Shown: in pieces, positions 1,327 through 42,200 of the stretch
Layout of the letters: each line of letters opens with the position of its first letter
How positions within the stretch are numbered: the first letter of the stretch is position 1
Virus record (IMG/VR): IMGVR_UViG_3300028025_001180
Direction: 5' to 3' (one strand)
From: a virus
Taxonomy: Duplodnaviria > Heunggongvirae > Uroviricota > Caudoviricetes
DNA length: 64,000 nt
Notes under the pieces: generated by a model
Database searches by the model: none
Told to the model about the DNA's origin: nothing
Seen by the model: the letters and a program-made list of their open reading frames with translations, nothing else
Translations under genes and position numbers: made by a program

Positions 1327-1498
1327 GAACTTCTATTGCTCCTTGAGACTTAGCTAGTTCTAATGCTACAGCTTCAATAAACTTCAATATATCATTGCCA
1401 TACATTGTAGGCAATTTCTCATTAGCATAGTTCATTAATAGTTGAACCTTTTCTGCAGTCAAAGAAGGAACTGGTAGTTGTTTTGTTTCTTGATTCAT
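1310..1498 (-). CDS. Small hypothetical protein, 62 aa. It is the last gene of the minus-strand block and its 3' end overlaps the converging plus-strand gene by 17 nt.
   Basis: ORF track only. Coding-like composition. No motif recognised. Confidence 0.35.
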   Translation of the reverse strand: MNQETKQLPVPSLTAEKVQLLMNYANEKLPTMYGNDILKFIEAVALELAKSQGAIEVPTEEI

Positions 1499-1552
1499 AA
1501 TATATGATTTTTAACAAAGGTAAGTTAACTAAATTAATTACCAAAATTTACT

Positions 1553-1948: not shown

Positions 1949-1975
1949 TTTTATTTGTTTTTATTTTTATTTTTA

Positions 1976-3658: not shown

Positions 3659-3659
3659 A

Positions 3660-15555: not shown

Positions 15556-18500
15556 TTATTTACCAAATGGTTTAGCCTCAGATTGTGCTTTCATACCAAG
15601 ATCTTTAGCTATATCTGGATAGAACATTAACAGAACAGCATCTACTTGTGAAGCTATAGGGAATCCTTTTAATAAGTATTTAACCACTTGAGTTTTCTCT
15701 GCCTTCTCTTCATCTCCTACACCAAGAGCATACATCTCTGTACCAAAGTTTACAAATAGCTTCTTAAAGTTTTCTAAGTAACTTATTGCTGGGAAGATAC
15801 CTGAGGTGGTTAGGCCTAAGAAGGATGTTGGATTGTAGAAATAAGCAACCTCATCTCTAATCTTATCCATCACTCTAAGCATATACTTATATCTGTTCTT
15901 TGTAGCTCTATCATCATCATCTCCTGGTTCCACTGCTTTGGCACCTATGATTAATGTGGACAATGCAAGATAGAACATGAAGTCTGTCATTTGGTTACGT
16001 ATGTTATTACTTACCAATTCTACAAACTCCCCTTCTGTCATTCTTAGTTCTTTACCTGTATCTTTCTCATAGTCAGATCTTTTTGATTCATAAAGTCTTT
16101 TTATTTGATCGACAAACTTTTGGTCATCTCCTTTTATAGAACTGATTAAGCTATCAACAGAACCCATAAAGTCTTGTGTTAGAAGTCTGAACATGTTTCT
16201 AGTTCTACCCCACTCATAAGCTTCTGTAGCTGAGTTGTATTTTAAGTTACCAAACCTTACGTCTACAAGTCTTGGTATCCAGTTCTTGAACACCATGAAT
16301 GACTTACCATATATATTTAAGTTAATCTTTCTAAGGTCATCCTCAGATAGGTTACCTAACGCATCTTTAGTAATAGCCTGTACCTTTCTTCTAAGCTCAA
16401 TCACACTATCAGACTTTCTGTCTAAGCCTTCCACTACAAGTTCATTACCTTCTACCTTAGCTAGTTTCAAAAAGCCTTTCTCATCAATTAGTCTCTTTAC
16501 CTCTGACTCAAACTTCTCTTTTAATTGACTTCTTTCTTCAGCTGTGCCTGTAAACATATTAGCAAACTCTGGTTGTTTCTTAAGATATTCTCTTACGTTA
16601 AATACCTTACCATCTTCTACAATAGAGTTTTCTAAGTAGCTAAAGAAGTTAATAGACTGCACATATTGATCTCCAGTTCTCATCAAGATCATTAAGAAGT
16701 CTTGTATTCCTTCTTGGCTAAACTTACTAACAGACAACTCTTTAGCAAGGATGTTGTTATAGTTTTCTGTCAAAGGTTGGAAGTATTGTAATGCTCCTAT
16801 GTATTTCTTAGAATCTACACCATTCATTTTACCTGCTAGCATAAACTCATTACGTACAAAGTCTGCCTTTGTAAAGAATTTACCAGCATTGATATAACTC
16901 TGGAAGCTACCACCTAAGAAGTTTGATAGGGCTGATATAGGATTCAATCCTAGCGTCTTCATTTGGAAGACATTATTTAACTGTGTGATTGTCTTGTTTA
17001 AAGATATCTGAGCATCATCATAGTCTTCTGTAAATACCTTTCTACCTAATACTTTGTTTGCTCTCTTACCAAAGTTTGCTATACCTCCTAATAACTGATC
17101 AAAGTTTTCACTTTCTACATACTTCTGACCATACACAATAGCTGCCATCATATCTCTTATAAGCTTAGTGTTGTCAGAGTTGTCTGATGTAGTCTCAACT
17201 GTACCATCAGGTCTGTACTTAGTTTTACCAAAGTAGGAGGTTTTGATGGCTTCTTTGTTTGACTCAACCTTAATAATCACATTTAACTGGTGCTCAATGT
17301 TACTTAAATACTCATAACGAATGGCCATGTTATTTAACAGAGTCATATTTCTGAACAAGTCTTCACTTGCTTCTTCTACAGTTTCTCTAGTAAAGTATTT
17401 AGGAATAGAATACACTGGCTCTTTAGTAATAGGATCTATCTCACCATAACCTACGTCTCCTTCTGTGATAGTTATGTTTCTTAACAAAGACTCACCAAGC
17501 TTATACTCACCCCCCATTACAATCTTTTCTGTAAGACTCTTTCTTACAAATGGTAAAAACACTCTAGCATCTCTACTATTAATATATTTGATTCCTACTA
17601 GATATTCATTTCTATCTTTAATATAATCAAAGAACTCTTTAGCAGGTTTGTTCTCTGGTTTGTTAAGTTCTTTCCATGCTTCAGACTCCCATCTCTCCGC
17701 CTTGGGAAACTTACTAACAAACTCATACAATAACCAACCAGGAGAATCAGTTGTTGATGTATTGTATAAAGCATTAACATCAGCAACCTCTCTCTTCTTC
17801 TCTTTGTTTATACTTTCTTCATCACCAAATCTAGGTTTATCTTCTATTCTCTTAAATTCTTTTTCCTTTTGTTCTTTTAAGAATTCATTATACTTTGATA
17901 CATCAATGTTATCTCTAACCCATTGTGTATCTTTCTCAGCAATCTTACTCTTCAAAGTTTCGTAGAACTCAGAACTAAACTCATTTATTAATTCATTCTT
18001 GTTCTTCTTCTTGATGATATCAAAGTAGTTTTTGTTTGTAAGTCCTTTAGACTTAGCCCACTTATCATACTTCTCTTTAATAGCTAAAAGTTTGTTTCCT
18101 TGTTCTGACGTTTCAATAGACGCAAGACCAAAGGCTCTGTTAGCCATCTTATATAAAATCTCAGCAGACTTAAGCTGTATTACAGATGTAGAGTTAAATA
18201 ACTTACTAAATCCTTTAATAACCTTCTCAGGTTTTAATAAGTCCATAACGTTTACATCTTTTGCAATAACATTCTCAGCAAAGTCTTTTCTTACTTCTTC
18301 AAGATCTGCTTCTAACTCATTTGCACTTTCTGCAGTGTCTCTAATGTCTTGCCACAATGCTTGATCTTTCTCAGACAAGTCTTTCTTGAACAAAGACTTT
18401 AAGTCTGTTGCCAAAGATGTATAAACCATCAGAGAGGTTTCATAAGATAGGATTCTATCAGATAGGTCATTCTTTTGTTTATCTGTAAATGCTCCTGGAT

Positions 18501-20556
18501 CTTTACCTTTCCACTCATTATTATATGTATCTATAACTCTTTGAACGTCAGCATTTAATAACTTAGCCTGTCTAATAAGGGGCTCAACATTCTCTCTCAT
18601 TTGTAATTGTCTAATAGACTCATACAATGAGTTTAATAATTCAGCTTTACTTCTTTTCTCTTCAGGACTAGCTTTCTTAGAAGATATAGTGTCATATATC
18701 TTATTAAGCTTTTCAATCAACGTATCTAGTTTCTTATTACTAGTCTTTTCAGTTTCTAAACCTACAGGTAGTAAGTATGCTAGTTCTTCTTTGTTTAAGT
18801 TTACATCTCCTATCTGAACACCTGTCAACTGTGGTAGCACTCCTTCTTTAGGAATAGCTCCAGAATAAATTGCTCTGATAGGAATCATTCTTGTCTGTTC
18901 AAAGTCTTCTGGCTTAACACCATACCCCTTTTCTATAATAGACTTGTATTGTTTCATTTGTTGTCTCCAAGCACTCACCTTATACCAAGGAACATCTTTA
19001 TATCTTTGAACATTAAGGTCCATAAACTTCCAGTCTAAGATGCTCACCTTTCCTTCAGGAGTAACAGCAATAAAGTCTATAGTACCAGCTACATCACGTG
19101 ATGCATTATATACAGTCATCTCAGCAAGAAACTTTGTATTAGCAGGGAATGTTTCCAAACGAGCTGCCATGTTTCTTTTAAGAATATTATACATATCCTT
19201 GTTCTTAGGATTCAACTGAGATACATATCCATTATCATCAGGTCTTTCATTCTCAGGTCTTAATGTACCATCTTCATTTAAGAAGTAGTTCTTAAGCATG
19301 TGCTCAATATCAGCATGTCCTGCTGTACCTTTTTCTTTCTTAAGATCATCTACAGCTTGGTCATACTCAGACTTAGTCAAGTCTTTGTTAGCAAATCTTG
19401 TGCTATACCAATCCTTAACAAAGTCAGTAACTCTTCTCTTGATTCTATTACCATTGATTAAATAACCAGTGTCATCTTTTGTAATCTGATCACTAGTAAA
19501 TCTTAACTTATCAATTATAGCCTGTTGAGAATTAATGTTTTGTTGGAAATACACACCCTCAGTGTTTCTAATATCATCAACATTTCCAATTTCTTCACCA
19601 CCCAACACCATCATAGCTGCTTGGTCAAAGCCAGACTTAACAAATAATCCTTTAATAAATTCAACTATTTGGTTCCACCAACCTTCCACACTAGCCAATA
19701 GTTCTGGCTTCTCTGTAGAACCTTCATTCTTTTTAATGATAGTCTCAGCTAATATTTTACCAATAGCTTCCACCTTTAACTTTCTGATGTTAGGTTTGCC
19801 ATCAGCAGTTTGATATTGTTTATACTTACCATATGTAGCTAGGACATCAGAGTACATTTTGTAGCTGTTGATTTCTCCTAGTAACTTATTAAATAACTGA
19901 GGATTCTTTTGCTCTAGTATTTCTACAACAAAGTGCATAGCTTCTTCTGTAAGAGCTACATCTTCTTTACCTTGAGTTACCTTTACAAGCTTTTGCATGA
20001 TATCAGCAACACCATTCACGTCTTGCTTAACACCATCTACCTCTATGGCTTGTAGTGTTTTAATATCTACACCTATTCTATTTAAAAGATCTTTAACAAG
20101 ACTTACAGTTTGAGGAGCTGCTTTAGAAGCAGGTATCTCTTCTGTTTGTAATAAAATGCTATCTCCATCAGAGTTGACACCAAACGTAGTGTCATTCTCA
20201 AGATCTAATCTATTAGCCTCAGGTATCTCAAGATCTAATTCAGCCAAAGCTTGGTCAAGCTCAGCTGCATCTTTTGCATTCAAAGCATCCAACTGCTTCA
20301 CTGTAGGAGCAATAATAACTCCCACCTTATCTGAATATGCTTTGGGATAGAATACTTTCCCTAGGGCAATTTCAGAATTGATTGCTTTGTTAAGAGTGTC
20401 TGCCACAGAACGTGATACTCCATAGTAGTTCTCAGGATTAACTTTCTCTCTAGGAGATGTCCTAACTTCTATAAAGTCCTTACCATCAAAGTTCAAGTAA
20501 GGCTTGTTCTGTACATATTTCTCAACTGCAGTTTTTATACCTGTTTGACAACTCAT
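15556..20556 (-). CDS. Large virion (presumptive ejected/cargo) protein, 1666 aa. Its start is coupled to the stop of the 3660-aa gene by a TAATG overlap.
   Basis: A long uninterrupted ORF with coding-like composition. The ATG at 20556 overlaps the TAA of the upstream gene. No catalytic motif recognised. Confidence 0.7.
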   Translation of the reverse strand: MSCQTGIKTAVEKYVQNKPYLNFDGKDFIEVRTSPREKVNPENYYGVSRSVADTLNKAINSEIALGKVFYPKAYSDKVGVIIAPTVKQLDALNAKDAAELDQALAELDLEIPEANRLDLENDTTFGVNSDGDSILLQTEEIPASKAAPQTVSLVKDLLNRIGVDIKTLQAIEVDGVKQDVNGVADIMQKLVKVTQGKEDVALTEEAMHFVVEILEQKNPQLFNKLLGEINSYKMYSDVLATYGKYKQYQTADGKPNIRKLKVEAIGKILAETIIKKNEGSTEKPELLASVEGWWNQIVEFIKGLFVKSGFDQAAMMVLGGEEIGNVDDIRNTEGVYFQQNINSQQAIIDKLRFTSDQITKDDTGYLINGNRIKRRVTDFVKDWYSTRFANKDLTKSEYDQAVDDLKKEKGTAGHADIEHMLKNYFLNEDGTLRPENERPDDNGYVSQLNPKNKDMYNILKRNMAARLETFPANTKFLAEMTVYNASRDVAGTIDFIAVTPEGKVSILDWKFMDLNVQRYKDVPWYKVSAWRQQMKQYKSIIEKGYGVKPEDFEQTRMIPIRAIYSGAIPKEGVLPQLTGVQIGDVNLNKEELAYLLPVGLETEKTSNKKLDTLIEKLNKIYDTISSKKASPEEKRSKAELLNSLYESIRQLQMRENVEPLIRQAKLLNADVQRVIDTYNNEWKGKDPGAFTDKQKNDLSDRILSYETSLMVYTSLATDLKSLFKKDLSEKDQALWQDIRDTAESANELEADLEEVRKDFAENVIAKDVNVMDLLKPEKVIKGFSKLFNSTSVIQLKSAEILYKMANRAFGLASIETSEQGNKLLAIKEKYDKWAKSKGLTNKNYFDIIKKKNKNELINEFSSEFYETLKSKIAEKDTQWVRDNIDVSKYNEFLKEQKEKEFKRIEDKPRFGDEESINKEKKREVADVNALYNTSTTDSPGWLLYEFVSKFPKAERWESEAWKELNKPENKPAKEFFDYIKDRNEYLVGIKYINSRDARVFLPFVRKSLTEKIVMGGEYKLGESLLRNITITEGDVGYGEIDPITKEPVYSIPKYFTRETVEEASEDLFRNMTLLNNMAIRYEYLSNIEHQLNVIIKVESNKEAIKTSYFGKTKYRPDGTVETTSDNSDNTKLIRDMMAAIVYGQKYVESENFDQLLGGIANFGKRANKVLGRKVFTEDYDDAQISLNKTITQLNNVFQMKTLGLNPISALSNFLGGSFQSYINAGKFFTKADFVRNEFMLAGKMNGVDSKKYIGALQYFQPLTENYNNILAKELSVSKFSQEGIQDFLMILMRTGDQYVQSINFFSYLENSIVEDGKVFNVREYLKKQPEFANMFTGTAEERSQLKEKFESEVKRLIDEKGFLKLAKVEGNELVVEGLDRKSDSVIELRRKVQAITKDALGNLSEDDLRKINLNIYGKSFMVFKNWIPRLVDVRFGNLKYNSATEAYEWGRTRNMFRLLTQDFMGSVDSLISSIKGDDQKFVDQIKRLYESKRSDYEKDTGKELRMTEGEFVELVSNNIRNQMTDFMFYLALSTLIIGAKAVEPGDDDDRATKNRYKYMLRVMDKIRDEVAYFYNPTSFLGLTTSGIFPAISYLENFKKLFVNFGTEMYALGVGDEEKAEKTQVVKYLLKGFPIASQVDAVLLMFYPDIAKDLGMKAQSEAKPFGK

Positions 20557-23500
20557 TAGAATTTACATTTAAAGTCTTTAGTACTTAGATCTGTTTCTGT
20601 TTCAGGTTGCGAATTTAATTCATTTTCAACAATACCTGTAAAGTATTTTATGATTTCTGAATTAGGAATTTCATTGTTCACCTTACCTGTATTATTATCT
20701 AGCTCAGAAGGTTTGTTGAATTTATAATATTCAGAAGTGAATTGTCCATCTCCATATAAGTTTACCATCTTGAATACAAACTTTCCTTTATATGTTCTCA
20801 ACGCTTCACCACTTACAAACTTAACTTTCTGATAACCAAACATTTGTCCAATCATAGGATCACCTTTGGCTTTTAGTTCTGCATATCCTGCTCTTGTAAT
20901 AGTCTTGCCAGTCATGAAGTCAATCATCTCACCATACTTAGTAGTGATGATGCGTGGAATAGTTACCATATCATAGCCAGCAGCTTTAGACTTTTCTCCT
21001 ACAGTGATTACAAGTTTATCATTCTCACCAATTCCAATCTCTGGGATTTCTACAAATCCTGTAAACTTGTATTGAGAAATTATTTCATTCTTAAACTCAC
21101 CAATCTCTGTTACAGACTCTTCGTCAATATAAGGAGCAATAGCAGGAGTGATATCTGGGTTTTTCCAATTGTTTCTTTGGAACCAATTGTTGTTAGCAAA
21201 CTCTTGAACGTTTGTATCTACTACAGCTGTGTTTACAATATTCTTCACTTCTGCAGAATAGTCTTCAATAGGAATGATGTTCTTAATAGATACAGCAGAT
21301 TGATATGTACCTTGTATGATAGCTACTTTGATAAGATCTTTGAATAGTTGGTTAGTGTCTAGATTGTCTCTCAACTCTCTCATCATACCAATATACATGT
21401 TCTCATCATAAGCTTCTTTGATATTAGCCTTAAGCTTAATAGTCTTAGGACTGTTTGGTCTTTCTGCAGACACTACAACTAAGTCTTGTAGTATTTGTAC
21501 ATTAGGATATTTTTGTTTATCTTCTTCTAACTTCACTGCTACAGACTCTGGACCAAAAGATAACTCACTGATATTCAATGGGGTCTTTCTACCTGTTTGA
21601 ATAATATAATCAAGCAAGCTTGCTGTAGCTTTCTCAGCCACTCTATTAAATGTATCTTTAGCCATGTAAAACTTCTCAGCATATTGTTGAATAGTATTCT
21701 CAAGTACTCCTCTGAATTCAGATTGGTTAAACTTAAGGATAGCACCCAACGCTGTATTAGATTGATCTAACACAGTTTTTTCTGTACCTAAGAAAGAACT
21801 GTCTAATACTTTCTCTGGAGAACTAATGGCACCTTTAGTTTGTGCACGATCAGTCATCATTTCTTTTCTATAGAAGTCATCAGCATTTCTAAACGTAGTA
21901 GTATCATAATTGATAGCCTGTGTGAAGTTAAAGTTCTCATCAGCTAGAGTAACATAAGATAAGAACTCATTCAGTATCTTGTGTTGTTCAGCATTCTGAG
22001 CTTCAGTCATTGCATTCTTAGCATAAGAAGATATATTATCTTCAAAGTTGCCTTCAGCAATTGTAGCTGCTTGGATAGCTTTTGGATTTGCAGGGAAGTT
22101 TATCTTAGCTTGTTTAATGTAATCAGGATTGCTTATTGCATATCTAGGAGCACCATTAGCATCTAAGTTCTTAATGTGTTCTCTTATGATAGGCTGATTC
22201 ATGAACATAGCCACTGTCTTCATAGGAACACCTGCACGCTCTAACAACATGAATGTACCCACAACTCTATTGCTGTAGATAATCTTCATGATGTATGGGT
22301 CTTTAGCAATATCTACGAAAGCATTCGCATACATTGATAACTTATCAGAGATGTATTTACCAGCCTGGTCTAACATACCAGAAAGTGATATATGCTCAAA
22401 GCCACCATCAGTAAACTTATTATGTTGTAAAGCCATTTCTGTTTGTGGATTCTCTACAAACACATCTGTCTTTTGTGCAAGGGAATTACCTGTAATATTT
22501 ACAGCAGCAATACCAATCCATCTCTTACCAGTCAAGAACGCATGTCTTTGATTAGTCATGTAGTTTCTATCTAGCAATCTATTCTTGATATCACCTTCAT
22601 CTTCTCCTCTCAATGTATCTAAATCACCAGCAATCTCTTTAAGAGTTGTATCTGTATTAGGAGAAGTCAATCTATTAAAGTTCTCTGGTAAAGTTAACAA
22701 CGCTTCAATAGATCTAAAGTATTCATTCTCAAGAGATTGTTTGTAAAGTTTATCTGCTAATGTACCATAGTCATCAACTCTGCTTCCAGAGATTTCACTA
22801 TTGATATCTAACATTGCTTTGATGTCTTCTTCAAGAATAAACTTCTTGATAGCCTCTTTAGCTTGATCTCCATATCCAAAGAATGGTACAGACTTAATCT
22901 CTCCAGAAGGAGTTACATATACATTCTTTAAGTATAGATTTAATTTATCTATGTCAAAGTCAGATCCAGCCTTTGTAGTGATCTCAGAAGGAACCACAAT
23001 TGTCTTACCCATAAATTCAGGTAGGAAACCTTTGATTCTAAATACCTCCATAGAGTTTAAGCCCTGTGTTGGAATACGAAATCCTATACCTTTTAATATC
23101 TCTGATCCTTCTAATAACTTAATTAGTTCTTCATCAGTCTTACCTTTAGGTAATTGTTTCTTGAACCATGCAGGAAGATATACTTCCATGTATGGATCTT
23201 CTTTAGTGTAGAACTTAAGAGCAGACTTCTTTAATCCTTCTCCTCTAGACTCACCAGCTTTCTCCCACATTGTTACAGGAACCTGTACAGCAGGGAAACC
23301 ATTCACCTTAGGAGATACAATAGACTTGTCTACAATTGAATACAAGATGTTCTTGATTTGAATGTAGTTTGTAGATGCTTCGAATGGCATATAAAACTCT
23401 CCAGTTTCAGGATCAATAGATATACTATCAATACCATTCTCAGACATTTCTCTCTTAAGCATCTCTTGTCTCAATGTATCAGCTACAACAGTTTTGTCTT

Positions 23501-26500
23501 TAACAACAAAGTTGTCACCTAGGTCTTCAATACCAAGCTTTCTTAATAACTCTTGATATCCATTTAAGATCATTTCTTTTAATACCTCAGTATTATGTTC
23601 TGCTTTCTTTTTAATATCTTCACTAAGAGCCTTACCATCACTGTATAAGTCAACAGTGGCTAATTTAGTAGGTTGAGAACCAAGAGTTTGTTTGCTATCT
23701 TTGTCATAGCTATTCTCTACTTGGATACCATAAGCATCCCAGCCAACATTGATTGTATTGTTAAATACTTCTTCATTAAAGCTACCATCTTCATTGTATA
23801 ATTTGTGTAACTTCTCAGCTCCTACCTTTCTACCAGAAACTACAATAGCATAGTCATACCCTTCCTTAAACATTTTCTCATAGAATTTGCCAAGGTTAGT
23901 TCCTTTTATAGCTTTGTAATACAAAGGCATTTGTGAAAACTTATCTAACACCAAGTCAGTATAAACTTTACCATATTTATTACCAGATACAATAGGCTTT
24001 AATACATCTGTAACATATATAGGTTCAGGTTGTTCTACTAACGCTTCATCATGTTTACGTAATGCTTCACTTCTGTAAGTGTAGCCAGGAACATTCTGTC
24101 TTGTGTAAGCCATTTGCCATTGATGCCAATCTTCAGCCTCATCAGACCATTGACCATTCTTTAACTTCACCTCTTTGTATGCAGCGTCCATAATCCAAGA
24201 AGCAGCATCTGCTTCATTTGATTTAGGATAGAAACTATCTGTTACATTTACGTCAGCAGCTGTGAACGTCTTAGCAAAGTTCTTATGATCATGATATCCA
24301 TAATCATTAGGAGTTAACTCAACACCAGCTACAGTATTATATTGTTTATTGAACAAGTTGTTAAACTCATCAGAGTTTACAGTGATTCTTCTTGGAGATA
24401 AGAAAGACTTAATACGCTTAGTCTCATCTAATTGATTGCCCTTAATCTCAAACTGATATGGATCACCAAACAAGATCTTGTGGAACTCCACGTTGTTAAT
24501 CATGTAGTTAGCATTAGCAAACTTGATAACATTATTAACATCTTGATCTGTCAAAGCCAACTTATTTAAGCCAGCCTTTTCAGTGAATCTATTCTCTAGT
24601 TCAGGCATTAAGAAATTACCTACTTCTTTACTAGCAATAACCTTTTGTGTCTCCACTAAGTTTTGTCTAGTCTTGACAACAGTGTTATCTAATGACTTTA
24701 ATATGGCTGTGTCTAAATCTTCACGATTTGTATTAATAAAATTATTAATATCTTCTTCTGATGCTCTATTGTCAATAAGCTTTTGTACCTTATTCAACAA
24801 TGTAGCAGGAAGCATATCCTTTAAGAATCTAAGTTCTGTAGCTTTATCTCCTACGTTTCTAAGCTTAGTTCTGTTAGTGCTGTCTTGAGCTAACTTAATC
24901 TCATCCTTTAAGTATCCTAGGAATGTGTCAGTGAATAGCGTATCTATGTTACCAGCAGCTACATCTGTATAGGCAATTGTGTTACCTAAGTCCATCATCC
25001 ATTCTCTAGAACTATCTGCAGGGATTAATACATAATATCTACCATCTAGGTTTTGATTCATTTCTGTAATGTACCTATCACCTATGCTTAGAGAAGATGT
25101 TGTTTGTCCTGCGTTATCTACAACATCCTTAACCCCCTGTATGTATTGTAACTTGATCTCAGCAATTCTATTACCTTCTTCATCAAAGAACTTACCACCT
25201 AGCTTTAACACTTGGCTGTTTGTAGAGAATACATCATTTAACTGAGGCATGTTCTGCTTCAATTCTTCCAATGTGTCAGAAGAGTTAAATACGTATTCTA
25301 ATAAAGAAGGATAGTTTGCATCTGTGTCAGATTGTATTCTATTACCATCTACACCAAAGTATGTGCTGTCTTCTGCAGGAGAAGCAGCCACTGTATATAA
25401 CTTAGCTAACTCATTTAACTGTGTACGAATACCAAGCTTTCTACCACCAAAGCTCATCAACTCATCTGTCTTACTAAGACCTAACTTAATACCACTTACA
25501 GCATCAGAGAAAGCTTTCTTATTCTTAACCTTATTGTATACAGCCATTGGGAACTCGATACCCAACTCTCCTAAGAACTCTATCTTATCTTGAGGAGTCT
25601 TAATGTTGTAATCCTCTTTCTTAACTGTATAAATCTTTCTCTTCTCATCATAGCTAATGATAGAACCAGGCTGTTCAGCCTTAGTCTTCATATTCTCTAT
25701 CCACTCAGATCTTGTTGCAGCAATAGCAGAAGCTTGATTAGCAGGAGCAGTGTATATGTTATTACCATCCATGAACATAGCTAACGCATCAGGTCTTTGT
25801 TTTGTAAACACCTGATAGAAGTTAGTAAACAATCTAATGTCATGAGGTTTATAAGAATTAAAGTCAATCTTACCAGTGGTTAGATTACCACCTAAACGCT
25901 CAAACAATCTAACGTAGTCACTGTTCTGTTTAGCTAACTCATGTAGCTTAGACACAAACTCAGGGATACTTCTTGTGTTAGAAAGTCTATTCATCAAAGT
26001 TGTGAACGCTTGATTAAAAGGCAATAACTTAAGTCCACCAATACTAGATGTATCAGCTTCAGGACGTTTAAGTACTGCACTTGCTTCTTGGTTCAAACCT
26101 TTTGTCTTAATCAAAGTACCAATCAATAACTTAACAGCGTATGGAGAAGACTTCTTAAAATTAACAGTGAATGCTTCAGCTGCATAGTCTTTTCTATTAG
26201 CACCATCATCATTAACTGTAACTCTACTATCTTCATCAAACTCAATTCTGTATGTCTTCAAGAACTCTTTAGTTCTTTCAACTAACTTAACGTATTGATT
26301 CTCAGTGATTTGTGTTGCAGGGTTATCACCTATAACATTGTTCTGTATGTATTTCTCCTTGATTCTATTAAATAAATCAGAAGCTGTAATATCTTCTACA
26401 TTAAACAAAGAGCTGTTGTTGGCAAATATCTCACCAAACACTCTAGCTGTAATGTCTTGTACAAACTCATTAGTTTGTTTAGCATTTATACCTTCAATTT

Positions 26501-29500
26501 TTCTATACTCAGCAGCTTCATTCTTAACAGTTTCAGGAAGTGTTCTATCTGCAAACTCACCTGTATCTATAGCTTTGAATAACTCTTCTTTCAATGTAGG
26601 TTTATTTACAAATGATTTGAAGAAATCCATAATAGCTTTGAAGAAGTTCTTAATCTTTTCTGTAAGGTTTCTAGCAGGTAACTTACCAAGTCTGAACTCA
26701 GCAAAGTCATCAGCTATTCTTTCCTTAGCTTGTTGATCTGTAGCGTTTGCATAATCTATTCTTCTACCAGACTCTCTATCTAAGAAAGAACCTGTTTGAG
26801 CTTTGAACTCATCAAGTATAGCTTGTTGTTCTCCTTGAGATAAGAAACCTTTCCAGATACCTTCAAATATCTCATGGTATTCTGTACCTCTCTGAGCTCC
26901 TTTAAAGAACTTAGCTACACCATTCTCAAATGCTCCCCATGCCTTCTCTGTACTATTGATGTTAATAACATTCTCTAACACTTCATAAGGAATAGTTTTA
27001 GCATTCTTAGCGTGCCATTCTTTAAACAATGCAAGCTCAGTGTCACTTATTCTATCTACATCTGTTCTACCAATTCTTCTATATTCAGCATCACCAATGT
27101 TGATGTTCTTAGGTTGGTCAGGAGTAATGACTTCTTCTTCAACAACAGGAGCTGCAGCTTTTCTTTCACTTAATAACTTAGCTGTAATAACCTCAGCAGC
27201 AAACTTAGCAGCAGTTTGAATAGGTTGATCTAACTCATCAAACTTACCTAAGTCTTTCAACTGTTGTGTAGCAACAGCCATTAGTTGTGGATTGTCAACA
27301 ATCTTTTGGATGTTTGGATTCTCACCAACTAACTCTACAGTAAAGTCACCTTTACTGTCTGTAGTAACTGTATATGTAACATCACCTACATTAGACTTAT
27401 ATGTCTCCACTCCAGGTTCTGCAGGTTTAGCTACAGATTGTTTTGGAAGTTCTAAGCCATTTAGAATAATATACTTTTGTTTATGTGTATAAGGAACAGC
27501 CTCTGTAGGTTTAGCCACAGTGGTTGTCAAAGGAGCTATACGTCCAGATCCATCAGGGTTCTTACTTGCTAACAAATAAGACTGATAGTTCTTCCAGCTT
27601 CTTTGTGCTAACTTACCAGCAGCATCCACATAGAATTCTACAAATGGTTCACCTAGTCCTAAGTTAACTGTGAAGCTATTTACATTATGAAACACTCCTT
27701 GTAAATCACTTATAATAGGAATCTCTTGTTTCTCTATATTAGCAAAGTCATATGTATTAGTTCCAATGTGTAATACAGATCCTTCTATATAAATACGATT
27801 GCTACTTCCTTCACCCACACCTTTTGCTACAGCATCTGCGTTGGTATAGAATGTAACTCCCTGTAAAAATCTCTTATATATCTCATTAAACTTAACTGGC
27901 TTCTTAGCAGCAATTTGTTGCTTAGCTTCATTAGACATCGCTTTGAGTACATTATAAACTGCACTTGCTTGGTCTTTAGTTAAGTTAGAATTGTTTAAAT
28001 ATTCTAATGTATCTTGGTCTTGGAATACAGGTCTGCCATTAGGAAAGTTATAAGTTATACCATCTATATGGTCAACACCTCCTTTAGTCACAACAGTCAA
28101 AACTTGTTGTGTAGCAATTTGATTCTCAGGAACAAGAATACCACCTACAGACTTTTTAACATCATCTGTAATAGCAATACCTTTAGATGGAGTGAAGTTA
28201 AATATTGGATACTCTTCTTCAGCAGCTTCTCTTAAGTCTTTACGATATACTTCGTATGCAGCTAATTCTAATGCAGCTTGTTCTTCTTGACCAGCTCTAT
28301 TTCTAGGTTCACCTTTACTATTGTCTAATTTAGCAGCAGGCATACTTGTAAATACCACCTTATTTAATTCTACTTGCTCACCCACTTTACCAATAGGATT
28401 GCCATCCTTATCTACAAATTGTCTTTCTCCTTTCTTATCTTCTACAAATACAAGACCAATAAAACCATAAACAGGATCATTTAATAAGTCTGTATCAAAG
28501 TTACCTTCTCTAAAAGATAGTTCACCAAGACCAGCTAATCCTAATGCAGCTTCTTGTTTCTGAGTGACAACAATAGCTTTGATGTTCTTATTATTCTTAA
28601 AGGTCTTTACCTTGTTTATAAACTCATTATAACGTGTAACGTTAGGAGCTAATACTTTTTCCCAGTCAATAGAAGCAGACGTAGAAGATGTAAACAATAT
28701 ACCTGCATCTTTCTTAGGAGTTTCTTTAGGACTAGGACTATTCATTAAGTCTTCATCATTGTTGCCTGTTGGGACAACTCCAGATGTAGCAGCAATATCA
28801 GTTTGTGCAGATTTAATCTTATCTGCTACAGCATTCATCTTCTCTCTATTAGCTTGAAGATCAGCTTGTTCTTTTAAATATGTTTCTGAAAGTGCATTGA
28901 ACTCAGTCTCAACAGCATCAATTAATTGTGCATTGTTTAAAGAGTTAATAGATGTTAACTTATCTTCTCCTTCAGGAAGTGTAACACCTGCAAACTCAGG
29001 AGTAGATAATACATTATCAATAGCAGCATCCATTATGTCTTTCAACTCTGGAGACTCTACACCCTCATCTGCTAAATCTAATGTTTCAAAATCTTCAGGA
29101 GTTAAGAAACTTACATTACCTCTAGGTAACTGCACTTCAAACTCACCACCTAATGTTTGAGATAACACCTTAACCTTAGGTGCTAGCGTAAGTGTATTCT
29201 CTTCTTTTCTAACAGGTTGTTTTAAGAAGTACTCTTTACCAACCTCTAGTTTTCTTTCTTTCTTTATAGGAAACAATTCAATCTGTCCTTCTGGAGTAAC
29301 TGGTTGTTCTTCTCCTTCCACCACTGTAACAGGCACTTCTTCTGTAGCACCAAACTCTACGTCAGGCTTGAATTGGAATTCTGTAGGATTAGCCTTGATA
29401 GCATCATACTCATCAATAAACATTTTCCTACGTAAGCCTAGCTCAATGATATCAGACAATGCTGTCTTCAAATCATCCTTAGTCTCAGAAGTTACGTCCA

Positions 29501-31538
29501 TCTCATTAATCTGTGCTAATGATTGTTCAACAGCTTCTTTATTAGGTTTGTTTTCTTTAATGATACTTTGTAAAATATCTTGTGTATTAACACCTGCTGT
29601 GAACAATAGACTGTTTACTTCAGGGATACGCAAGTCATAACTACCTACCTTAGCTAAAGAATACACCATCTTATCTAAGATCTCTGATGTATAGCCAGGT
29701 TGATTACTATATTTTCTACCTAATGAATCATAAAGATCATTAATGTTCTTAGTAATTCTTCCAACATTTTTAATTCTATCTAAGAAATCTTCTCTACTTT
29801 CACCAGCATTTACAATACCATTTGCTACCAACTGTTGAAAGCCTTCTTCTGTAGATGATTGTTGAGAGTAATATGAAAGTTCTTCTCCAATAGAATCCAC
29901 TTTACCATACTTAACTCTTGGCATAATGTAAGATAGAGTGAAGTCATTTTCAAAGTCTTTCTCAGAAACCTTATCATTATTTACAATAGCTTGTTGTCTA
30001 GCCTTTTGAGAACCAATACCAATACCTATGTATCTAGCATAGTCTCCAAGTACAGTTTCAATATTGCTTTGATTCAAAGCACCTAGAGCAATGTCTGTAT
30101 TAGCTCTTCTTAATCCTCCTGTACCTAATATACCTTGTTGTTGAATTGTATTTCTAACTTGTTGGATACCACCAGACAAGCCACCAATTAATATACTCTC
30201 TAATCCTTCTTTAGTAGATATAGCATCTTCTACACCTTTACCAAGTACATTCCCCATAGTGCCACTTAGAGCAGTCAAGAAGTCTTGTGTACCTTGTCTG
30301 TTTCTAAAGGCTCTGTTGAAATAATCATTTGTACCTACTTGGATAGCAAACTGTGCACCTTCTTCAAATGCTTCTGATGGAGCAAAGAATAGTTTTGAAA
30401 CATCCTTTGATCTTTGTAGCAACTTTCCAAACTTAGTAGCTGGCATCACTTCTGTGAATGCAGCACCTTGTCCTTTCTTCTCGATCTGATTAAGTAACAT
30501 CTTATCAGCTCTATTAGAAGAACCTAATATCTTTGGAAGTTGAATATAGTTTGTGCCAGTTAATAATAAAGTATTCATTCCCCAAGTGAAGTTACCAACA
30601 CTACTTACATACTCATCAATCTCTTCTAGGTCAGCACCTGTAGGATTTTTACCATACTTTTTTACATATTGTTCTATTGCTCCTTTTCTAAACTCATTTG
30701 CATTTTGCAAAGCCTCTAATGAAGCTTCACCAAATGTACCCATTGTAGAAGCAACAATTCTTTCAGGATCACTTAGTACTTTAGCTAAAGGAGTCTTTAA
30801 ATATTTCTGAGCTATAGAATTAACTGCACCATCAAATGCAGCAAATTGATTCACTTTAGGAACAGCTTGCATTGCATTCTCTGCAGCAGTCACAGCCTCT
30901 AAACCATAACCACCTCTAACTAATGCATTTGTTGTACCTAATGTTTTTAATAATTTAGCCCAAGCTACACCACCACCAATAGCACCCACTGTATACCCTA
31001 AGTTCTTCATCAACTTATCTGAGAAGAAGTTAGCAGTCCAGATGTTATCAGGAGACCACCAGTCAGCATCTTTTTCTTTTGCTGTATAATAGTTAGGAGC
31101 AATATCTTCTAATCCTTGGATAAATGTTTCATCCATCTTTCTAGTCAAATCATTATTATACAGACTAGAAAACTTTCCATCTTTTATAGCAGAACCAACA
31201 CCATAAACAAGACCAGCTGTACCAGAAACAAGAGAAGCAGTTGCAGTACCAAAAAACTTAATAGCACCATTCTTCCATTTATCTGCACTAGATTGTTGCT
31301 GACCATACATCTCTTCTAAGTCTTCACCAGGTCTAACAGCAGCATATCTATCACCAGAATATAGATTGGACGTAGGAATAGCCTCTATACCTGCTGGTTT
31401 AACAGTACTTAATCCTTGTGTATACAAGTCAGTTATAGAAGGAGTAGGTCCTTTAGATTGTCTAATATCTGTATTTACTACAGGTGTATTTGGAAAACCT
31501 TCAATTGTACCCCCTAAGTTTACTATTTTATCTGGCAT
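20556..31538 (-). CDS. Giant 3660-aa virion protein, candidate virion-packaged RNA polymerase of the crAss-like type. A DFDID Asp triad lies at about aa 2785.
   Basis: This is the single longest ORF. It contains GSDFDIDK, resembling the universal beta-prime Mg-binding motif D-x-D-x-D (NADFDGD in bacterial RNAP). The size and its position among the tail/cargo genes downstream of the head module match the giant vRNAP genes of crAss-like phages. This is motif-level evidence only. Confidence 0.45.
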   Translation of the reverse strand: MPDKIVNLGGTIEGFPNTPVVNTDIRQSKGPTPSITDLYTQGLSTVKPAGIEAIPTSNLYSGDRYAAVRPGEDLEEMYGQQQSSADKWKNGAIKFFGTATASLVSGTAGLVYGVGSAIKDGKFSSLYNNDLTRKMDETFIQGLEDIAPNYYTAKEKDADWWSPDNIWTANFFSDKLMKNLGYTVGAIGGGVAWAKLLKTLGTTNALVRGGYGLEAVTAAENAMQAVPKVNQFAAFDGAVNSIAQKYLKTPLAKVLSDPERIVASTMGTFGEASLEALQNANEFRKGAIEQYVKKYGKNPTGADLEEIDEYVSSVGNFTWGMNTLLLTGTNYIQLPKILGSSNRADKMLLNQIEKKGQGAAFTEVMPATKFGKLLQRSKDVSKLFFAPSEAFEEGAQFAIQVGTNDYFNRAFRNRQGTQDFLTALSGTMGNVLGKGVEDAISTKEGLESILIGGLSGGIQQVRNTIQQQGILGTGGLRRANTDIALGALNQSNIETVLGDYARYIGIGIGSQKARQQAIVNNDKVSEKDFENDFTLSYIMPRVKYGKVDSIGEELSYYSQQSSTEEGFQQLVANGIVNAGESREDFLDRIKNVGRITKNINDLYDSLGRKYSNQPGYTSEILDKMVYSLAKVGSYDLRIPEVNSLLFTAGVNTQDILQSIIKENKPNKEAVEQSLAQINEMDVTSETKDDLKTALSDIIELGLRRKMFIDEYDAIKANPTEFQFKPDVEFGATEEVPVTVVEGEEQPVTPEGQIELFPIKKERKLEVGKEYFLKQPVRKEENTLTLAPKVKVLSQTLGGEFEVQLPRGNVSFLTPEDFETLDLADEGVESPELKDIMDAAIDNVLSTPEFAGVTLPEGEDKLTSINSLNNAQLIDAVETEFNALSETYLKEQADLQANREKMNAVADKIKSAQTDIAATSGVVPTGNNDEDLMNSPSPKETPKKDAGILFTSSTSASIDWEKVLAPNVTRYNEFINKVKTFKNNKNIKAIVVTQKQEAALGLAGLGELSFREGNFDTDLLNDPVYGFIGLVFVEDKKGERQFVDKDGNPIGKVGEQVELNKVVFTSMPAAKLDNSKGEPRNRAGQEEQAALELAAYEVYRKDLREAAEEEYPIFNFTPSKGIAITDDVKKSVGGILVPENQIATQQVLTVVTKGGVDHIDGITYNFPNGRPVFQDQDTLEYLNNSNLTKDQASAVYNVLKAMSNEAKQQIAAKKPVKFNEIYKRFLQGVTFYTNADAVAKGVGEGSSNRIYIEGSVLHIGTNTYDFANIEKQEIPIISDLQGVFHNVNSFTVNLGLGEPFVEFYVDAAGKLAQRSWKNYQSYLLASKNPDGSGRIAPLTTTVAKPTEAVPYTHKQKYIILNGLELPKQSVAKPAEPGVETYKSNVGDVTYTVTTDSKGDFTVELVGENPNIQKIVDNPQLMAVATQQLKDLGKFDELDQPIQTAAKFAAEVITAKLLSERKAAAPVVEEEVITPDQPKNINIGDAEYRRIGRTDVDRISDTELALFKEWHAKNAKTIPYEVLENVININSTEKAWGAFENGVAKFFKGAQRGTEYHEIFEGIWKGFLSQGEQQAILDEFKAQTGSFLDRESGRRIDYANATDQQAKERIADDFAEFRLGKLPARNLTEKIKNFFKAIMDFFKSFVNKPTLKEELFKAIDTGEFADRTLPETVKNEAAEYRKIEGINAKQTNEFVQDITARVFGEIFANNSSLFNVEDITASDLFNRIKEKYIQNNVIGDNPATQITENQYVKLVERTKEFLKTYRIEFDEDSRVTVNDDGANRKDYAAEAFTVNFKKSSPYAVKLLIGTLIKTKGLNQEASAVLKRPEADTSSIGGLKLLPFNQAFTTLMNRLSNTRSIPEFVSKLHELAKQNSDYVRLFERLGGNLTTGKIDFNSYKPHDIRLFTNFYQVFTKQRPDALAMFMDGNNIYTAPANQASAIAATRSEWIENMKTKAEQPGSIISYDEKRKIYTVKKEDYNIKTPQDKIEFLGELGIEFPMAVYNKVKNKKAFSDAVSGIKLGLSKTDELMSFGGRKLGIRTQLNELAKLYTVAASPAEDSTYFGVDGNRIQSDTDANYPSLLEYVFNSSDTLEELKQNMPQLNDVFSTNSQVLKLGGKFFDEEGNRIAEIKLQYIQGVKDVVDNAGQTTSSLSIGDRYITEMNQNLDGRYYVLIPADSSREWMMDLGNTIAYTDVAAGNIDTLFTDTFLGYLKDEIKLAQDSTNRTKLRNVGDKATELRFLKDMLPATLLNKVQKLIDNRASEEDINNFINTNREDLDTAILKSLDNTVVKTRQNLVETQKVIASKEVGNFLMPELENRFTEKAGLNKLALTDQDVNNVIKFANANYMINNVEFHKILFGDPYQFEIKGNQLDETKRIKSFLSPRRITVNSDEFNNLFNKQYNTVAGVELTPNDYGYHDHKNFAKTFTAADVNVTDSFYPKSNEADAASWIMDAAYKEVKLKNGQWSDEAEDWHQWQMAYTRQNVPGYTYRSEALRKHDEALVEQPEPIYVTDVLKPIVSGNKYGKVYTDLVLDKFSQMPLYYKAIKGTNLGKFYEKMFKEGYDYAIVVSGRKVGAEKLHKLYNEDGSFNEEVFNNTINVGWDAYGIQVENSYDKDSKQTLGSQPTKLATVDLYSDGKALSEDIKKKAEHNTEVLKEMILNGYQELLRKLGIEDLGDNFVVKDKTVVADTLRQEMLKREMSENGIDSISIDPETGEFYMPFEASTNYIQIKNILYSIVDKSIVSPKVNGFPAVQVPVTMWEKAGESRGEGLKKSALKFYTKEDPYMEVYLPAWFKKQLPKGKTDEELIKLLEGSEILKGIGFRIPTQGLNSMEVFRIKGFLPEFMGKTIVVPSEITTKAGSDFDIDKLNLYLKNVYVTPSGEIKSVPFFGYGDQAKEAIKKFILEEDIKAMLDINSEISGSRVDDYGTLADKLYKQSLENEYFRSIEALLTLPENFNRLTSPNTDTTLKEIAGDLDTLRGEDEGDIKNRLLDRNYMTNQRHAFLTGKRWIGIAAVNITGNSLAQKTDVFVENPQTEMALQHNKFTDGGFEHISLSGMLDQAGKYISDKLSMYANAFVDIAKDPYIMKIIYSNRVVGTFMLLERAGVPMKTVAMFMNQPIIREHIKNLDANGAPRYAISNPDYIKQAKINFPANPKAIQAATIAEGNFEDNISSYAKNAMTEAQNAEQHKILNEFLSYVTLADENFNFTQAINYDTTTFRNADDFYRKEMMTDRAQTKGAISSPEKVLDSSFLGTEKTVLDQSNTALGAILKFNQSEFRGVLENTIQQYAEKFYMAKDTFNRVAEKATASLLDYIIQTGRKTPLNISELSFGPESVAVKLEEDKQKYPNVQILQDLVVVSAERPNSPKTIKLKANIKEAYDENMYIGMMRELRDNLDTNQLFKDLIKVAIIQGTYQSAVSIKNIIPIEDYSAEVKNIVNTAVVDTNVQEFANNNWFQRNNWKNPDITPAIAPYIDEESVTEIGEFKNEIISQYKFTGFVEIPEIGIGENDKLVITVGEKSKAAGYDMVTIPRIITTKYGEMIDFMTGKTITRAGYAELKAKGDPMIGQMFGYQKVKFVSGEALRTYKGKFVFKMVNLYGDGQFTSEYYKFNKPSELDNNTGKVNNEIPNSEIIKYFTGIVENELNSQPETETDLSTKDFKCKF

Positions 31539-39246: not shown

Positions 39247-42200
39247 TTAGGGTTGTTCTTCAACTGTTCCTTCTAATACACAAGGGTATCCTGTTACCAC
39301 TGCTGTACCAGTTAGGTTACAATACGTAATTATTGTGGTTGTTGTAGTTGTGGTTGGAGAAGGTATTTCTGTAACTGCTATTGCTGTGACATCACATCCT
39401 TCATTTAAGCCAGAATAGAAGAAGTTATTTTCTCCTATATAGAAGTTAGGTAGGTACGTATGGAAACTCACCCAGCTCTTTGTATTCAAGTTAAATGATG
39501 CAGTCCATGATTTATTACAGAAGTATTCAAGGTCTGTCACCTCAACATATTTCTTAACTTCAATATCACCAGCTATAGGTTGGTTAACATAAAACTCTTT
39601 AGCCACCTCATCATAGAACACATCCTTAGTTGGCTGAGGAATGTAGTCTAACTTAGTAATAATGATTCTTTCAAACTTACTATCAAATACACCATGAAGA
39701 CCAATGTTTTTGAAATGGTTATCTGTATCTACTGTTGGGAAGTATCTCAAGATTTCAAATGCCAAATGGTCTGTAAAGAACCTATTAAGACCAGAACCAA
39801 ACCCTGAAATTTCCTGTGCTTGCGTACCTTGAATTAAAAAGACTTGACCTCTCTTAGCATCAATAGTTACTTGTCCTTGAGGTATCTTAAGTAACATCTT
39901 ATTTTGACAACCAACAAATCCAAGATCTGTCTCAGCAAAATCAATTGGAGGTGCATTGTTACTACTAAATAAAGAAGGATTACCTAAATATGCAGCCTGA
40001 GGATTACTTGTTTCAATAGTTAATAAGTTACCATACAATAATGTTTTATTCTCAAATCTAGCTAATGTAGCTCTATTTTGTATACCATCTAATGATATTA
40101 ACTTACCATAGTTTTGAGGGAAATCAAAGAAACTCACTGGGCGATATATCAACCAACTGTTTATTCTGTTATCAGAATAGCTTTGTTGTGCATCAGAATA
40201 TATTGCTCTGAATGGAAAGTCTCTATAACACAATTGCTTTACCCAGTCTGCTGGTAAATGAGAGAAGAAGTTTTCTGTATTCTGCTTAGAGAAGGTTGTA
40301 TTGTAATAATATGTATTATCAAAAGCAATAGGAACTCTACTTTCTTGGAACCAACTATCAGGGATGCCTGAGCTCACGTGTGGGTAGAAGTCACCCTCTA
40401 AGTTATTGAATGCCTGACGTAAGTCTACATTAATAGAACTTTCTACATAATAGTAAGGAATACCATAAGCAAACAAATACATCTTACCATCATACACATA
40501 ATTCAAAGAACCAGCTGTAACTGTTCCAATAGGAGGTGTAGTGGAACTTGTTGTAGTGCTTGTAGATGTTTCTACAGCACTGTCATTAGGACAGTCAAGA
40601 TAGTTTGCTTTGGTGGATATAATATTCTTCATTAACGTGCTCCCCACATAATAATCAGATAGTATAGATCTAGCTGAATACCAGTATTGTGGATAGGCTA
40701 TGTTACCAATCTCATCATAGTATATATCAGAATCATCAGGAGCATTTACTCTATTATCTATAAAGAATGGAAGCTTTGTCTTAAATCCAAATCTACCAAT
40801 ATATGTATCTCCTCCAAATATAGTCTCAATAGTAGATGGTGAAACAAGTCTTGTTTGGAATCCTGTATCAATAGTTTGATACGAATATATCTGTCCCCAT
40901 TGAGCATTATTAATAACCTTTATAGAACCATAATAAGATACTACCTTAATATCTCTTTGAGCCTCAGGGCTAGCACAGTTACCTGCTTCTGAAATTGTAA
41001 ACCTTGAATTATCACTAATCTGACTTACACCTGCTATAACAAGAGATGACGTTTGATTAGGATATGGCAAAGGAGCTACTGTAAAAGGTACACCATCTCT
41101 ACTATCAATAGTTTTGATATAAACTGAAGATTCTCTATTCCAGTTGTTAAGATCATAGTTATCTCCTACTGATTGTACACCAGGGAATACATATTGAGAT
41201 TTGTCAAGTTGTCTTTGTTTGATTCCTTGATTATTAGGAATATCTGCACTATAGTCATAGCTAGATCTAGAGTTGAAAGAATAAGCAAAGTTTTTTCTAC
41301 TGATACCATTTACATAAATTTGTAAGTAAGTCTGGTATGCTGTAAAGAAAGCTATAGCACTAAATCCTCCAAGGTCTGCTATTCTCTTACTAGAGTTTAA
41401 TGCATCAACTTGTGTTTGTTCAGTGAGAAGTTTATATTTAGAATGCTTCTCCACCTCAACAAAGTGAGCTTTACCACCACCAAACAATACACTTTCTAAC
41501 TTAAGAACATTGCCTAATGTAGGCTGTCCAAAAGAGGTTTCTGGAGAATTGAAAACTTGTCTATAAGCAGAATCAGGATTGTTAAATCCATTTAACTTAT
41601 TTGGATAGCACTCAATATTTTGATTAGTGTTAGTAACAACAACAGTAGCTTTAGGGTTTCCACTAGTACGTACTGGAACCGTTGTTGAGTTTACTGTTAC
41701 AGGATTACCAAAACTAACTGTAATATTTGTAAGAGCGTCTGTAATTGGATCTGTATATTGAAAAACAGTAGATCCAAGTATAGAACTAGTTACAGTTAAT
41801 ACATATGCTGTGTTTGTAATATTAGTAAATGTAGCACTTCCTGTTATGACTGTAGGAAGTGTAATAGAACATATCTCACTAGTTCCAACAGCAAATGCTT
41901 GACTATCTATTTCTCCTGTAAAACAGTTTGTATATTGTAATGTACCAGCAGTAGTGGCTACTATTTGATATGTATCACATTGAGAATTGTAAGCATTGTT
42001 TCTCTCAAGTAAGAATGGATCTTCATTTAAGTCATTATAAGGATAGTTAGGATAGTAATAGTAAGTAGCATTAGGATCACTAGGATTTTCTCTAGTGTAC
42101 TTACCTACGTTTCTAAGAATACCTTTGGCAATGATAGACTTGTTAGTACTTCTATTACCTCTTACTATTTTAAATCCAACAATAGATGCCTTCTCTGCAT

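Follow-up and report, generated by a model that had tools for sequence, protein, structure and literature searches.

A giant open reading frame of an environmental crAss-like phage probably encodes a virion RNA polymerase fused in frame to a gp67-type protein

The minus strand of IMG/VR virus record IMGVR_UViG_3300028025_001180 (Caudoviricetes; the 64,000-nucleotide stretch analyzed here, hereafter the window) carries a giant open reading frame (ORF) of 3660 amino acids. From the N terminus, its predicted product comprises a module related to virion proteins gp47 of phage crAss001 and gp67 of phage phi14:2 (the N-module), a short probable linker, a junction domain that is zincin-like by motif, and a single-chain RNA polymerase (RNAP) of the two-barrel type. 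Coordinates of these parts and of the neighboring genes are collected in Table 1. Homologues were searched for with two query parts, residues 1-1800 and 1401-3200.

The only DxDxD motif of the giant ORF is DFDID, found in the translated context …EITTKAGSDFDIDKLNLYLKN…, and a scan for D.D.D in ten large neighboring ORFs yielded none. For a protein of this composition and length, about 0.9 DxDxD, 0.04 DFDxD, and 0.003 DFDID are expected by chance. The bare DxDxD is thus not significant; significance is carried by the full DFDID motif and above all by its position, which is aligned with that of phi14:2 gp66. An initial annotation had placed GSDFDIDK in the giant ORF with exact nucleotide coordinates, had put the motif at about residue 2785 (some 75 residues too low), and had proposed that it marks a crAss-like virion RNAP.

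That proposal is borne out by homology of the C-terminal ~2000 residues to gp66. When the whole giant protein was compared with all PDB sequences using phmmer, the single match was 6VR4, the structure of phi14:2 gp66 (E = 1.8e-27). The giant's TKAGSDFDIDKL is paired with gp66 TKTGSDFDIDKM in this alignment, placing the two DFDID motifs in register. Two stretches are aligned, query residues 2326-2875 with chain residues 862-1390 and query residues 2930-3120 with chain residues 1484-1670, the second of which spans the bridge helix (1529-1559) and trigger loop (1598-1636) of gp66. With blastp, the giant matched gp66 at 5e-35 and crAss001 gp50 at 3e-25. A tblastn search of phage genomes found RNAP genes in 136 records, mostly crAss-like genomes (uncultured gut crAss-like phages and phages of Bacteroides, Cellulophaga, and Flavobacterium), and G-S-D-F-D-x-D-K-L is invariant across the 38 homologues of alignment A2. 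gp66 is a Mg-dependent, DNA-dependent RNAP that is delivered with the DNA, and changing any Asp of its DFDID abolishes activity (Drobysheva et al., bioRxiv 10.1101/2020.03.07.982082).

The predicted fold agrees with the alignment. An AlphaFold2 model of residues 2250-3250, built on the 38 homologues, had a mean predicted local distance difference test score (pLDDT) of 83.6 and a predicted template modeling score of 0.79; pLDDT was 73-81 around DFDID, and the motif lies in an ordered region. Foldseek matched the model to 6VR4 at E = 6.4e-30 and to Neurospora QDE-1 at E about 1e-4. All significant fold matches were two-barrel RNAPs; none was a T7-like right-hand polymerase of the kind found in phage N4. 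Two double-psi beta-barrels and their connector lie in one chain, as in gp66 and QDE-1. The giant is not a beta-prime subunit of a multisubunit RNAP, as it has neither NADFDGD, with Gly at position 4, nor the beta-prime architecture. The direct match to an RNAP at the motif, the barrel fold around it, and its ordered surroundings are what the initial annotation had named as the points to check.

Just before the connector, the motif SGRKVG has invariant S, K, and G (S319, K322, and G324 of alignment A2), with R in ≥90% of the sequences; it may belong to the beta-type barrel and may supply the conserved Lys and Arg of that barrel. K2571 of this motif and other basic residues upstream of the connector (K2514 and K2374/R2375/K2377/R2383) are invariant in the same 38 sequences and are candidates for this role. 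A long helix falls where gp66 has its bridge helix (native 1529-1559). Together, these data show that residues ~1637-3660 form a single-chain polymerase with two barrels that belongs to the phi14:2 gp66 family, in which DFDID is the Mg-binding triad of the beta-prime-like barrel, and that the beta-like barrel, the connector, and the bridge-helix/trigger-loop region are arranged in the gp66 order.

The N-terminal ~1450 residues are a module of the gp47/gp67 type. By blastp, residues 99-718 match crAss001 gp47 109-818 at E = 6.6e-21; the match to the N terminus of phi14:2 gp67 is weaker (2e-4). The initial annotation had suggested extra N-terminal cargo domains, and this holds: the module and the junction domain correspond to proteins that are separate virion components in crAss001 and phi14:2. 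Mass spectrometry found gp47, gp49, and gp50 in crAss001 virions (PMC10172136), and gp65 and gp67 are present in the phi14:2 particle (Drobysheva et al., bioRxiv 10.1101/2020.03.07.982082). crAss001 gp47 is itself annotated as a "putative RNA-polymerase subunit." DFDxD was absent from all 47 database homologues found with residues 1-1800, most of them 1500-2000 residues long, so the N-module is a separate gene in most relatives; 53 database homologues cover the N-module side only.

The most conserved part of the module is a domain shared by gp47, gp67, protein XAI97382 of Leptolyngbya phage Lbo-JY46, and a protein of marine virus NIOZ-UU157; tblastn with the N-terminal region also reached crAss001 gp47, IAS virus, phi17:2, and cr111_1. 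This domain contains the Gly-rich region that the initial annotation had noted, an uncharged Gly/Ser/Thr-rich segment that is hydrophobic in every aligned homologue, and a second Gly-rich hydrophobic stretch.

The domain at the junction of the two modules is the one that forms the C terminus of crAss001 gp47. A profile of 63 segments (query residues 1480-1800) matched gp47 2085-2314 at E = 2.4e-28, and the domain carries the signature GTEYHEIFEGIW. Distant homologues, crAss001 gp47, and a few members of the clade show GT.YHE..H, with an HExxH of the zincin type, and at this position the majority of the clade has HExxE. The window protein belongs to this majority, with H1555, E1556, and E1559 in place of the canonical HExxH. 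In the deliberately diverse 16-sequence alignment A4, only G1535, H1555, E1556, and E1606 are invariant; E1606 belongs to ERIAD, in which Glu and Asp (E207 and D211) are invariant in alignment A3.

The HEIFE region has pLDDT <50 in the model of residues 1400-2300, and Foldseek of that model against the PDB gave no match at E ≤ 0.001. Neither a junction profile search of PDB sequences nor per-member Pfam searches gave a zincin match, returning noise only, and hhalign against a four-sequence alignment of the gp65/gp49-type motif region gave a probability of 23% over 30 columns. Because neither a zincin fold nor a profile match was confirmed, we label the domain zincin-like by motif and not as a member of the family.

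The in-frame fusion of these parts is genuine and common in this clade, since relatives at 88-93% identity and 23 database proteins span the junction. Two related loci, L004 (93% identity) and L005 (90%), are open across it, as are the proteins P0049-P0051; in all, the junction is spanned from both sides by 23 of the 110 proteins that were retrieved (29-93% identity). Apparent exceptions were rejected. A split of L004 into 751 and 3011 residues reflects a run of N in the scaffold, L005 seems to start where its contig simply ends, the frame being open upstream, and P0052, a seemingly stand-alone RNAP of 2024 residues, likewise begins at a contig edge with an open frame upstream.

Other relatives are split, and four arrangements are seen in all when the N-module, junction domain, and RNAP are written N, Z, and R. 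The arrangement [N][Z+R] is found in L009 and in many relatives whose RNAP genes begin at query residues 1489-1537, many stand-alone ones just past the linker at 1489-1497; [N+Z][R] is found in L008, with 12 nucleotides between the genes, and in crAss001; [N+Z+R] is the form in the window; and one case is cut inside Z. This last is L001 (46-53% identity), in which gene A, of 1743 residues, ends at a single in-frame TAA, and the 15 in-frame bases from there to the ATG of the RNAP gene encode FFKGI, against FFKAI in the window. In L001 11060-11240 (ENA KRAE22-1 scaffold_3350), the TAA lies inside a domain that is continuous in crAss001 gp47. This stop may have arisen by a recent nonsense mutation or through an error in sequencing, or it may be read through.

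The initial annotation had described the giant ORF as about 1.5 kb longer than usual virion RNAP genes and as an unusually large fusion. The excess over gp66 (2180 residues) is in fact ~1480 residues, or ~4.4 kb. The fusion is real but not unusual for the group, given the relatives that span the junction and the fused forms already published: in some crAss-like phages, the RNAP and two neighbors form one huge polyprotein (Drobysheva et al., bioRxiv 10.1101/2020.03.07.982082), and a review mentions RNAP genes of up to ~6000 residues (PMC10136315). The fused arrangement is therefore not new in kind, and the giant is a new, divergent member of the crAss-like virion RNAP family.

Ten of the retrieved relatives (P0056, P0059, P0063, P0066, P0071, P0078, P0088, P0095, P0106, and P0107) have precomputed Pfam domains without a counterpart in the window protein: PF08719 (YbiA/NADAR), PF13532 (2OG-Fe(II) oxygenase), PIF1/UvrD/AAA_30-type helicase domains, PF25176, and PF00583 (acetyltransferase). 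To judge from how far these relatives extend past the part that aligns with the window protein, the domains are mostly C-terminal. Injected polymerases appear to double as carriers of accessory enzymes, like polyvalent proteins.

Taken together, the giant ORF is very probably the virion RNAP gene of an environmental crAss-like phage, fused in frame to a gp67-type gene homologous to crAss001 gp47; the source phage is probably from fresh water. By analogy with phi14:2 and crAss001, the giant protein would be made late and packed into the cargo zone of the capsid with its 925- and 1666-residue neighbors. As in the homologues, it would be threaded through the tail, partly unfolded, ahead of or with the DNA, would refold in the cytoplasm, and would transcribe early genes without the rifampicin-sensitive RNAP of the host. 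The N-module would leave first, and its conserved hydrophobic Gly-rich segments may join an envelope-spanning conduit or anchor at the entry site. The RNAP would follow on the same chain, which would fix both a 1:1 ratio and the order of ejection. A model for coliphage N4 gp50 has the N-terminal domain anchoring and the order N-terminal domain, linker, RNAP, and HExxH-containing C-terminal domain (PMC13434306). Ejection of the fused chain may resemble this proposal, in function only.

Several observations weigh against the interpretation as a fused, injected polymerase. Packaging, ejection, and activity of the giant are carried over from homologues at 20-25% identity, and the role suggested for the N-module draws on one clear hydrophobic segment and on a parallel with N4, a phage with a polymerase of unrelated fold. 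In relatives the modules are separate proteins, split at three or more points and in crAss001 even encoded on opposite strands; covalent linkage is therefore not needed for function. Residues 1780-2300 (24639-26199, minus strand) gave no Foldseek match to 6VR4 or other PDB entries at E ≤ 0.001; they are reasonably modeled (pLDDT ~75-90) and colinear in length with gp66 residues ~300-850. Searches of the giant against PHROGs and Pfam gave no match at all, and Pfam at E ≤ 10 on its sub-regions returned noise only.

The main rival explanation, which we regard as quite possible though short of favored, is that the 3660-residue chain is a precursor cut near the linker or junction domain, which would yield a cargo protein like gp47/gp67 and, free of it, an RNAP of ~2000-2170 residues, the products acting as in phi14:2. 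The protease might be the zincin-like domain of the giant itself, that of the 1666-residue neighbor, or a host enzyme. Cleavage of fused forms has been proposed, and a zincin-like protease noted in the block, by Drobysheva et al. (bioRxiv 10.1101/2020.03.07.982082), and zincin-like peptidases are the processing domain usually proposed for phage polyvalent proteins (PMC5512222). The placement of an HExxH-type domain between the modules, the low-confidence linker at residues 1450-1485, and the synthesis of the parts as separate proteins in relatives all fit such processing. Against it, HEIFE has Glu in place of the second metal-binding His and the neighbor has EEAMH, neither of which is a canonical zincin site, and the zincin fold is unconfirmed by model confidence, profile, or fold match. 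Nor does the choice between HExxE and HExxH track the fused or split state, as P0095 and P0098 are fused and have HExxH. N4 gp50 is packaged as one full-length chain, uncleaved. This also counts against processing, as that protein carries an HExxH domain (PMC13434306).

A bolder version of the fusion reading, which we consider rather unlikely as a whole, holds that in this clade the gp47/gp67-type protein, the HExxH-type domain, and the two-barrel RNAP are one functional unit whose gene has been repeatedly fused and split, that the fused form works uncleaved as an N4-like anchor-linker-polymerase, and that HExxE is nonproteolytic. If so, the N4-like architecture would be convergent, built on an unrelated polymerase fold, and the conserved HExxE would serve, for example, metal binding, regulation, or blocking of a cleft.

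We judge it improbable that the gene gives two products, the full-length chain and a separate RNAP started at the internal Met1637 or near residue 1489. In L001 the separate RNAP gene has its start codon exactly at the position of M1637, and many relatives start at residues 1489-1537, as such a scheme would predict. However, the bases from the L001 stop to its ATG keep a conserved coding sequence, and the domain that spans M1637 is continuous in gp47, which argues for M1637 as an ordinary internal residue.

Still less likely is the loss of a stop codon through faulty sequencing or assembly, with two adjacent genes merged as a result; a single same-frame TAA separates the genes in L001, and one base error could merge or split them, but independent assemblies from other samples (L004, L005, and P0049-P0051) are open at the same point, as are divergent proteins at 29-54% identity. 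That DFDID is a chance run of five residues, mostly acidic, and the giant a structural or cargo protein without polymerase activity is scarcely credible, despite the near-unity chance expectation for DxDxD, as the motif is aligned and invariant where the giant is homologous to an RNAP proven by biochemistry, in agreement with the predicted fold. Both of these last readings are effectively excluded.

The surroundings of the giant ORF are those expected of a crAss-like virion RNAP. The muzzle protein marks the genome as crAss-like, and the gene order muzzle, small genes, 1122 residues, 925 residues, giant, 1666 residues parallels g071…g068-g067-g066-g065 of phi14:2. As the initial annotation had it, the giant lies among tail and cargo genes past the head module. 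It is downstream of the genes for the muzzle, large terminase (TerL), portal, and major head protein, and the TAATG coupling to both flanking genes is confirmed by their stop/start overlaps. The same 925-residue gene stands upstream of the giant in L004. Collagen-like and other tail-fiber genes lie downstream, also on the minus strand.

Table 1. Features of the giant ORF and its neighborhood in the window
Feature	Position	Strand	Basis or remark
Giant ORF, 3660 aa: N-module, zincin-like domain, and two-barrel virion RNA polymerase	20556..31538	-	ORF call and homologies
N-module, aa 1 to ~1450; homologous to crAss001 gp47 (N-terminal and middle) and phi14:2 gp67 N terminus	27189..31538	-	
Conserved N-terminal domain, aa ~60-340, most conserved part; LPNYYT and NLG[FY]xxGA motifs	30519..31361	-	tblastn, alignment
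Uncharged Gly/Ser/Thr-rich hydrophobic segment, aa 95-118 (FFGTATASLVSGTAGLVYGVGSAI); candidate membrane-inserting helix	31185..31256	-	Kyte-Doolittle scan
Probable inter-module linker, aa ~1450-1485 (…AAAPVVEEEVITPDQPKN…)	27084..27191	-	pLDDT <50 in aa 1400-2300 model
Junction domain, aa ~1486-1780; homologous to C-terminal domain of crAss001 gp47	26199..27083	-	
HEIFE, aa 1555-1559; HExxE variant of HExxH metal-binding motif	26862..26876	-	Alignment
ERIAD, aa 1606-1610; invariant Glu ~50 residues past the motif, candidate third metal ligand (gluzincin-like ExxxD)	26709..26723	-	E127 of A4
Fusion point relative to split relative L001: N1631 codon AAC = L001 TAA stop; M1637 = ATG of L001 RNAP gene	26628..26648	-	
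RNAP module, aa 1637-3660 (2024 aa); counterpart of the separate RNAP of L001, gp66, and crAss001 gp50	20556..26630	-	
Modeled catalytic core, aa 2250-3250: both double-psi beta-barrels, connector, bridge-helix/trigger-loop region	21789..24791	-	
SGRKVG, aa 2568-2573, directly before connector; candidate basic motif of beta-like barrel	23820..23837	-	Aligned to gp66 DGVKVG
DFDID catalytic aspartate triad, aa 2860-2864	22947..22961	-	In register with gp66 1361-DFDID-1365
Long helix, aa 2991-3022, at gp66 bridge helix position	22473..22568	-	Model helix 742-773 and phmmer domain 2
1666-aa gene, gp65/gp49-type RNAP-associated protein by position and weak similarity; third block member, downstream	15556..20556	-	phmmer, blastp, gene order
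925-aa cargo-type gene, upstream, TAATG overlap with giant ORF	31538..34315	-	Lbo-JY46 XAI97383, 4e-18
Crassvirus muzzle protein	39247..43956	-	Pfam PF25731 crAss_MUZ 7.5e-30; phrog_37948 2.8e-99
Major head protein	53662..55215	-	Upstream of giant ORF
Portal	57178..59760	-	Upstream of giant ORF
TerL	59760..61802	-	Upstream of giant ORF

The 1666-residue protein matches crAss001 gp49 by phmmer (2.5e-7) and Lbo-JY46 XAI97381 by blastp (2e-5). Its residues 204-208 are EEAMH, aligned with EEFAH in crAss001 gp49, HEIMH in gp65, and HEFMH in XAI97381; with HEIFE in the giant and EEAMH here, both HExxH-type motifs of the transcription block are noncanonical. Residues ~400-626 of the same protein have a weak match to PD-(D/E)XK/exonuclease profiles.

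Hosts of related crAss-like phages are mostly Bacteroidota. By large terminase, the isolate closest to the window is the cyanophage Leptolyngbya phage Lbo-JY46 (PP438436.1), at 38.9% identity; all Bacteroidota phages are more distant. In Lbo-JY46, the block XAI97383-97382-97381 matches the 925-residue gene, the N-module, and the 1666-residue gene, respectively, and these three proteins, the only ones examined, contain no DFDxD.

Elsewhere in the window, a 2403-residue ORF (8192-15403, minus strand) consists mainly of collagen-like G-[ST]-[SAT] triplet arrays, with globular segments recurring between them, and probably encodes a tail fiber; the plus-strand ORFs 8886-9392, 10608-11423, 12069-13340, and 13452-14234 and the nested minus-strand ORFs within it are by-products of the repeats. 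An SbcD/Mre11-like "DNA repair exonuclease" gene (46077-47327, minus strand; phrog_704, 3.6e-45) sits inside the structural block, between a tail-fiber-like gene (48431-49561) and the muzzle region. In L008 (Logan ERR12350085_8350), a GIY-YIG endonuclease gene (6608-7465) lies among the cargo genes just upstream of the N-module gene. crAss-like phages are known for their density of homing elements, and this insertion fits that pattern.

These results place the hallmark virion RNAP in a divergent environmental crAss-like phage. As evidence of the Rosetta-stone type, the fusion points to a physical partnership between the gp47/gp67-type "RNAP-associated" protein and the catalytic RNAP, and the variable break points and HExxE offer concrete constructs for testing whether such giant proteins are processed. 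Earlier publications already cover the enzyme family with its motif and packaging, as well as fused forms, and the value of the present analysis is incremental: it maps the fusion partner to gp47/gp67, identifies the HExxE variant at the junction, and catalogs alternative break points.

Among known systems, two members of the two-barrel superfamily, QDE-1 and the multisubunit beta-prime subunit, share only ~10% identity with the giant, which has Ile in place of the universal Gly at motif position 4; most of the giant protein has no counterpart in them, and unlike in cellular RNAPs, both of its barrels lie in one chain. Coliphage N4 gp50 (3500 residues) resembles the giant as a chain of N-terminal ejection/anchoring domain, linker, polymerase, and HExxH-type domain; it is packaged and ejected for early transcription, as the giant would be. 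The comparison is of the "works like" kind only. Instead of two barrels, N4 gp50 has a T7-like, single-subunit polymerase with the right-hand fold, unrelated to the giant in sequence and fold, and the domain order differs, as its HExxH domain follows the polymerase.

crAss001 offers counterparts for both halves. The two ends of gp47 (109-818 and 2085-2314) correspond to the N-module and the junction domain, respectively, and gp50, which carries DFDVD, matches the catalytic part. In contrast to the window, gp47 and gp50 are encoded on opposite strands, ~4 kb apart, and gp47 has the canonical HEAFH where the window has HEIFE, as well as a longer middle region. With phi14:2 gp66 (PDB 6VR4), the likeness is as follows: DFDID is identical and in register, identity is 24% over ~800 residues, and the giant from linker to C terminus measures ~2175 residues against 2180 for gp66. 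The neighborhoods also agree (muzzle, small cargo genes, gp67-type, RNAP, gp65-type). They differ in that g067 (1797 residues) is a separate gene whose stop overlaps the g066 start, whereas the window has one ORF. gp66 lacks the HExxH-type motif, which in phi14:2 is in gp65, and the N-terminal half of the giant's RNAP module has no detectable structural match. Drobysheva et al. cite Yutin et al. 2018 for RNAP blocks fused into a "huge polyprotein." As far as that citation describes them, these blocks resemble the giant in that the RNAP is covalently fused with neighboring virion proteins; in the window, two of the three proteins are fused, and the gp65-type gene stands separate.

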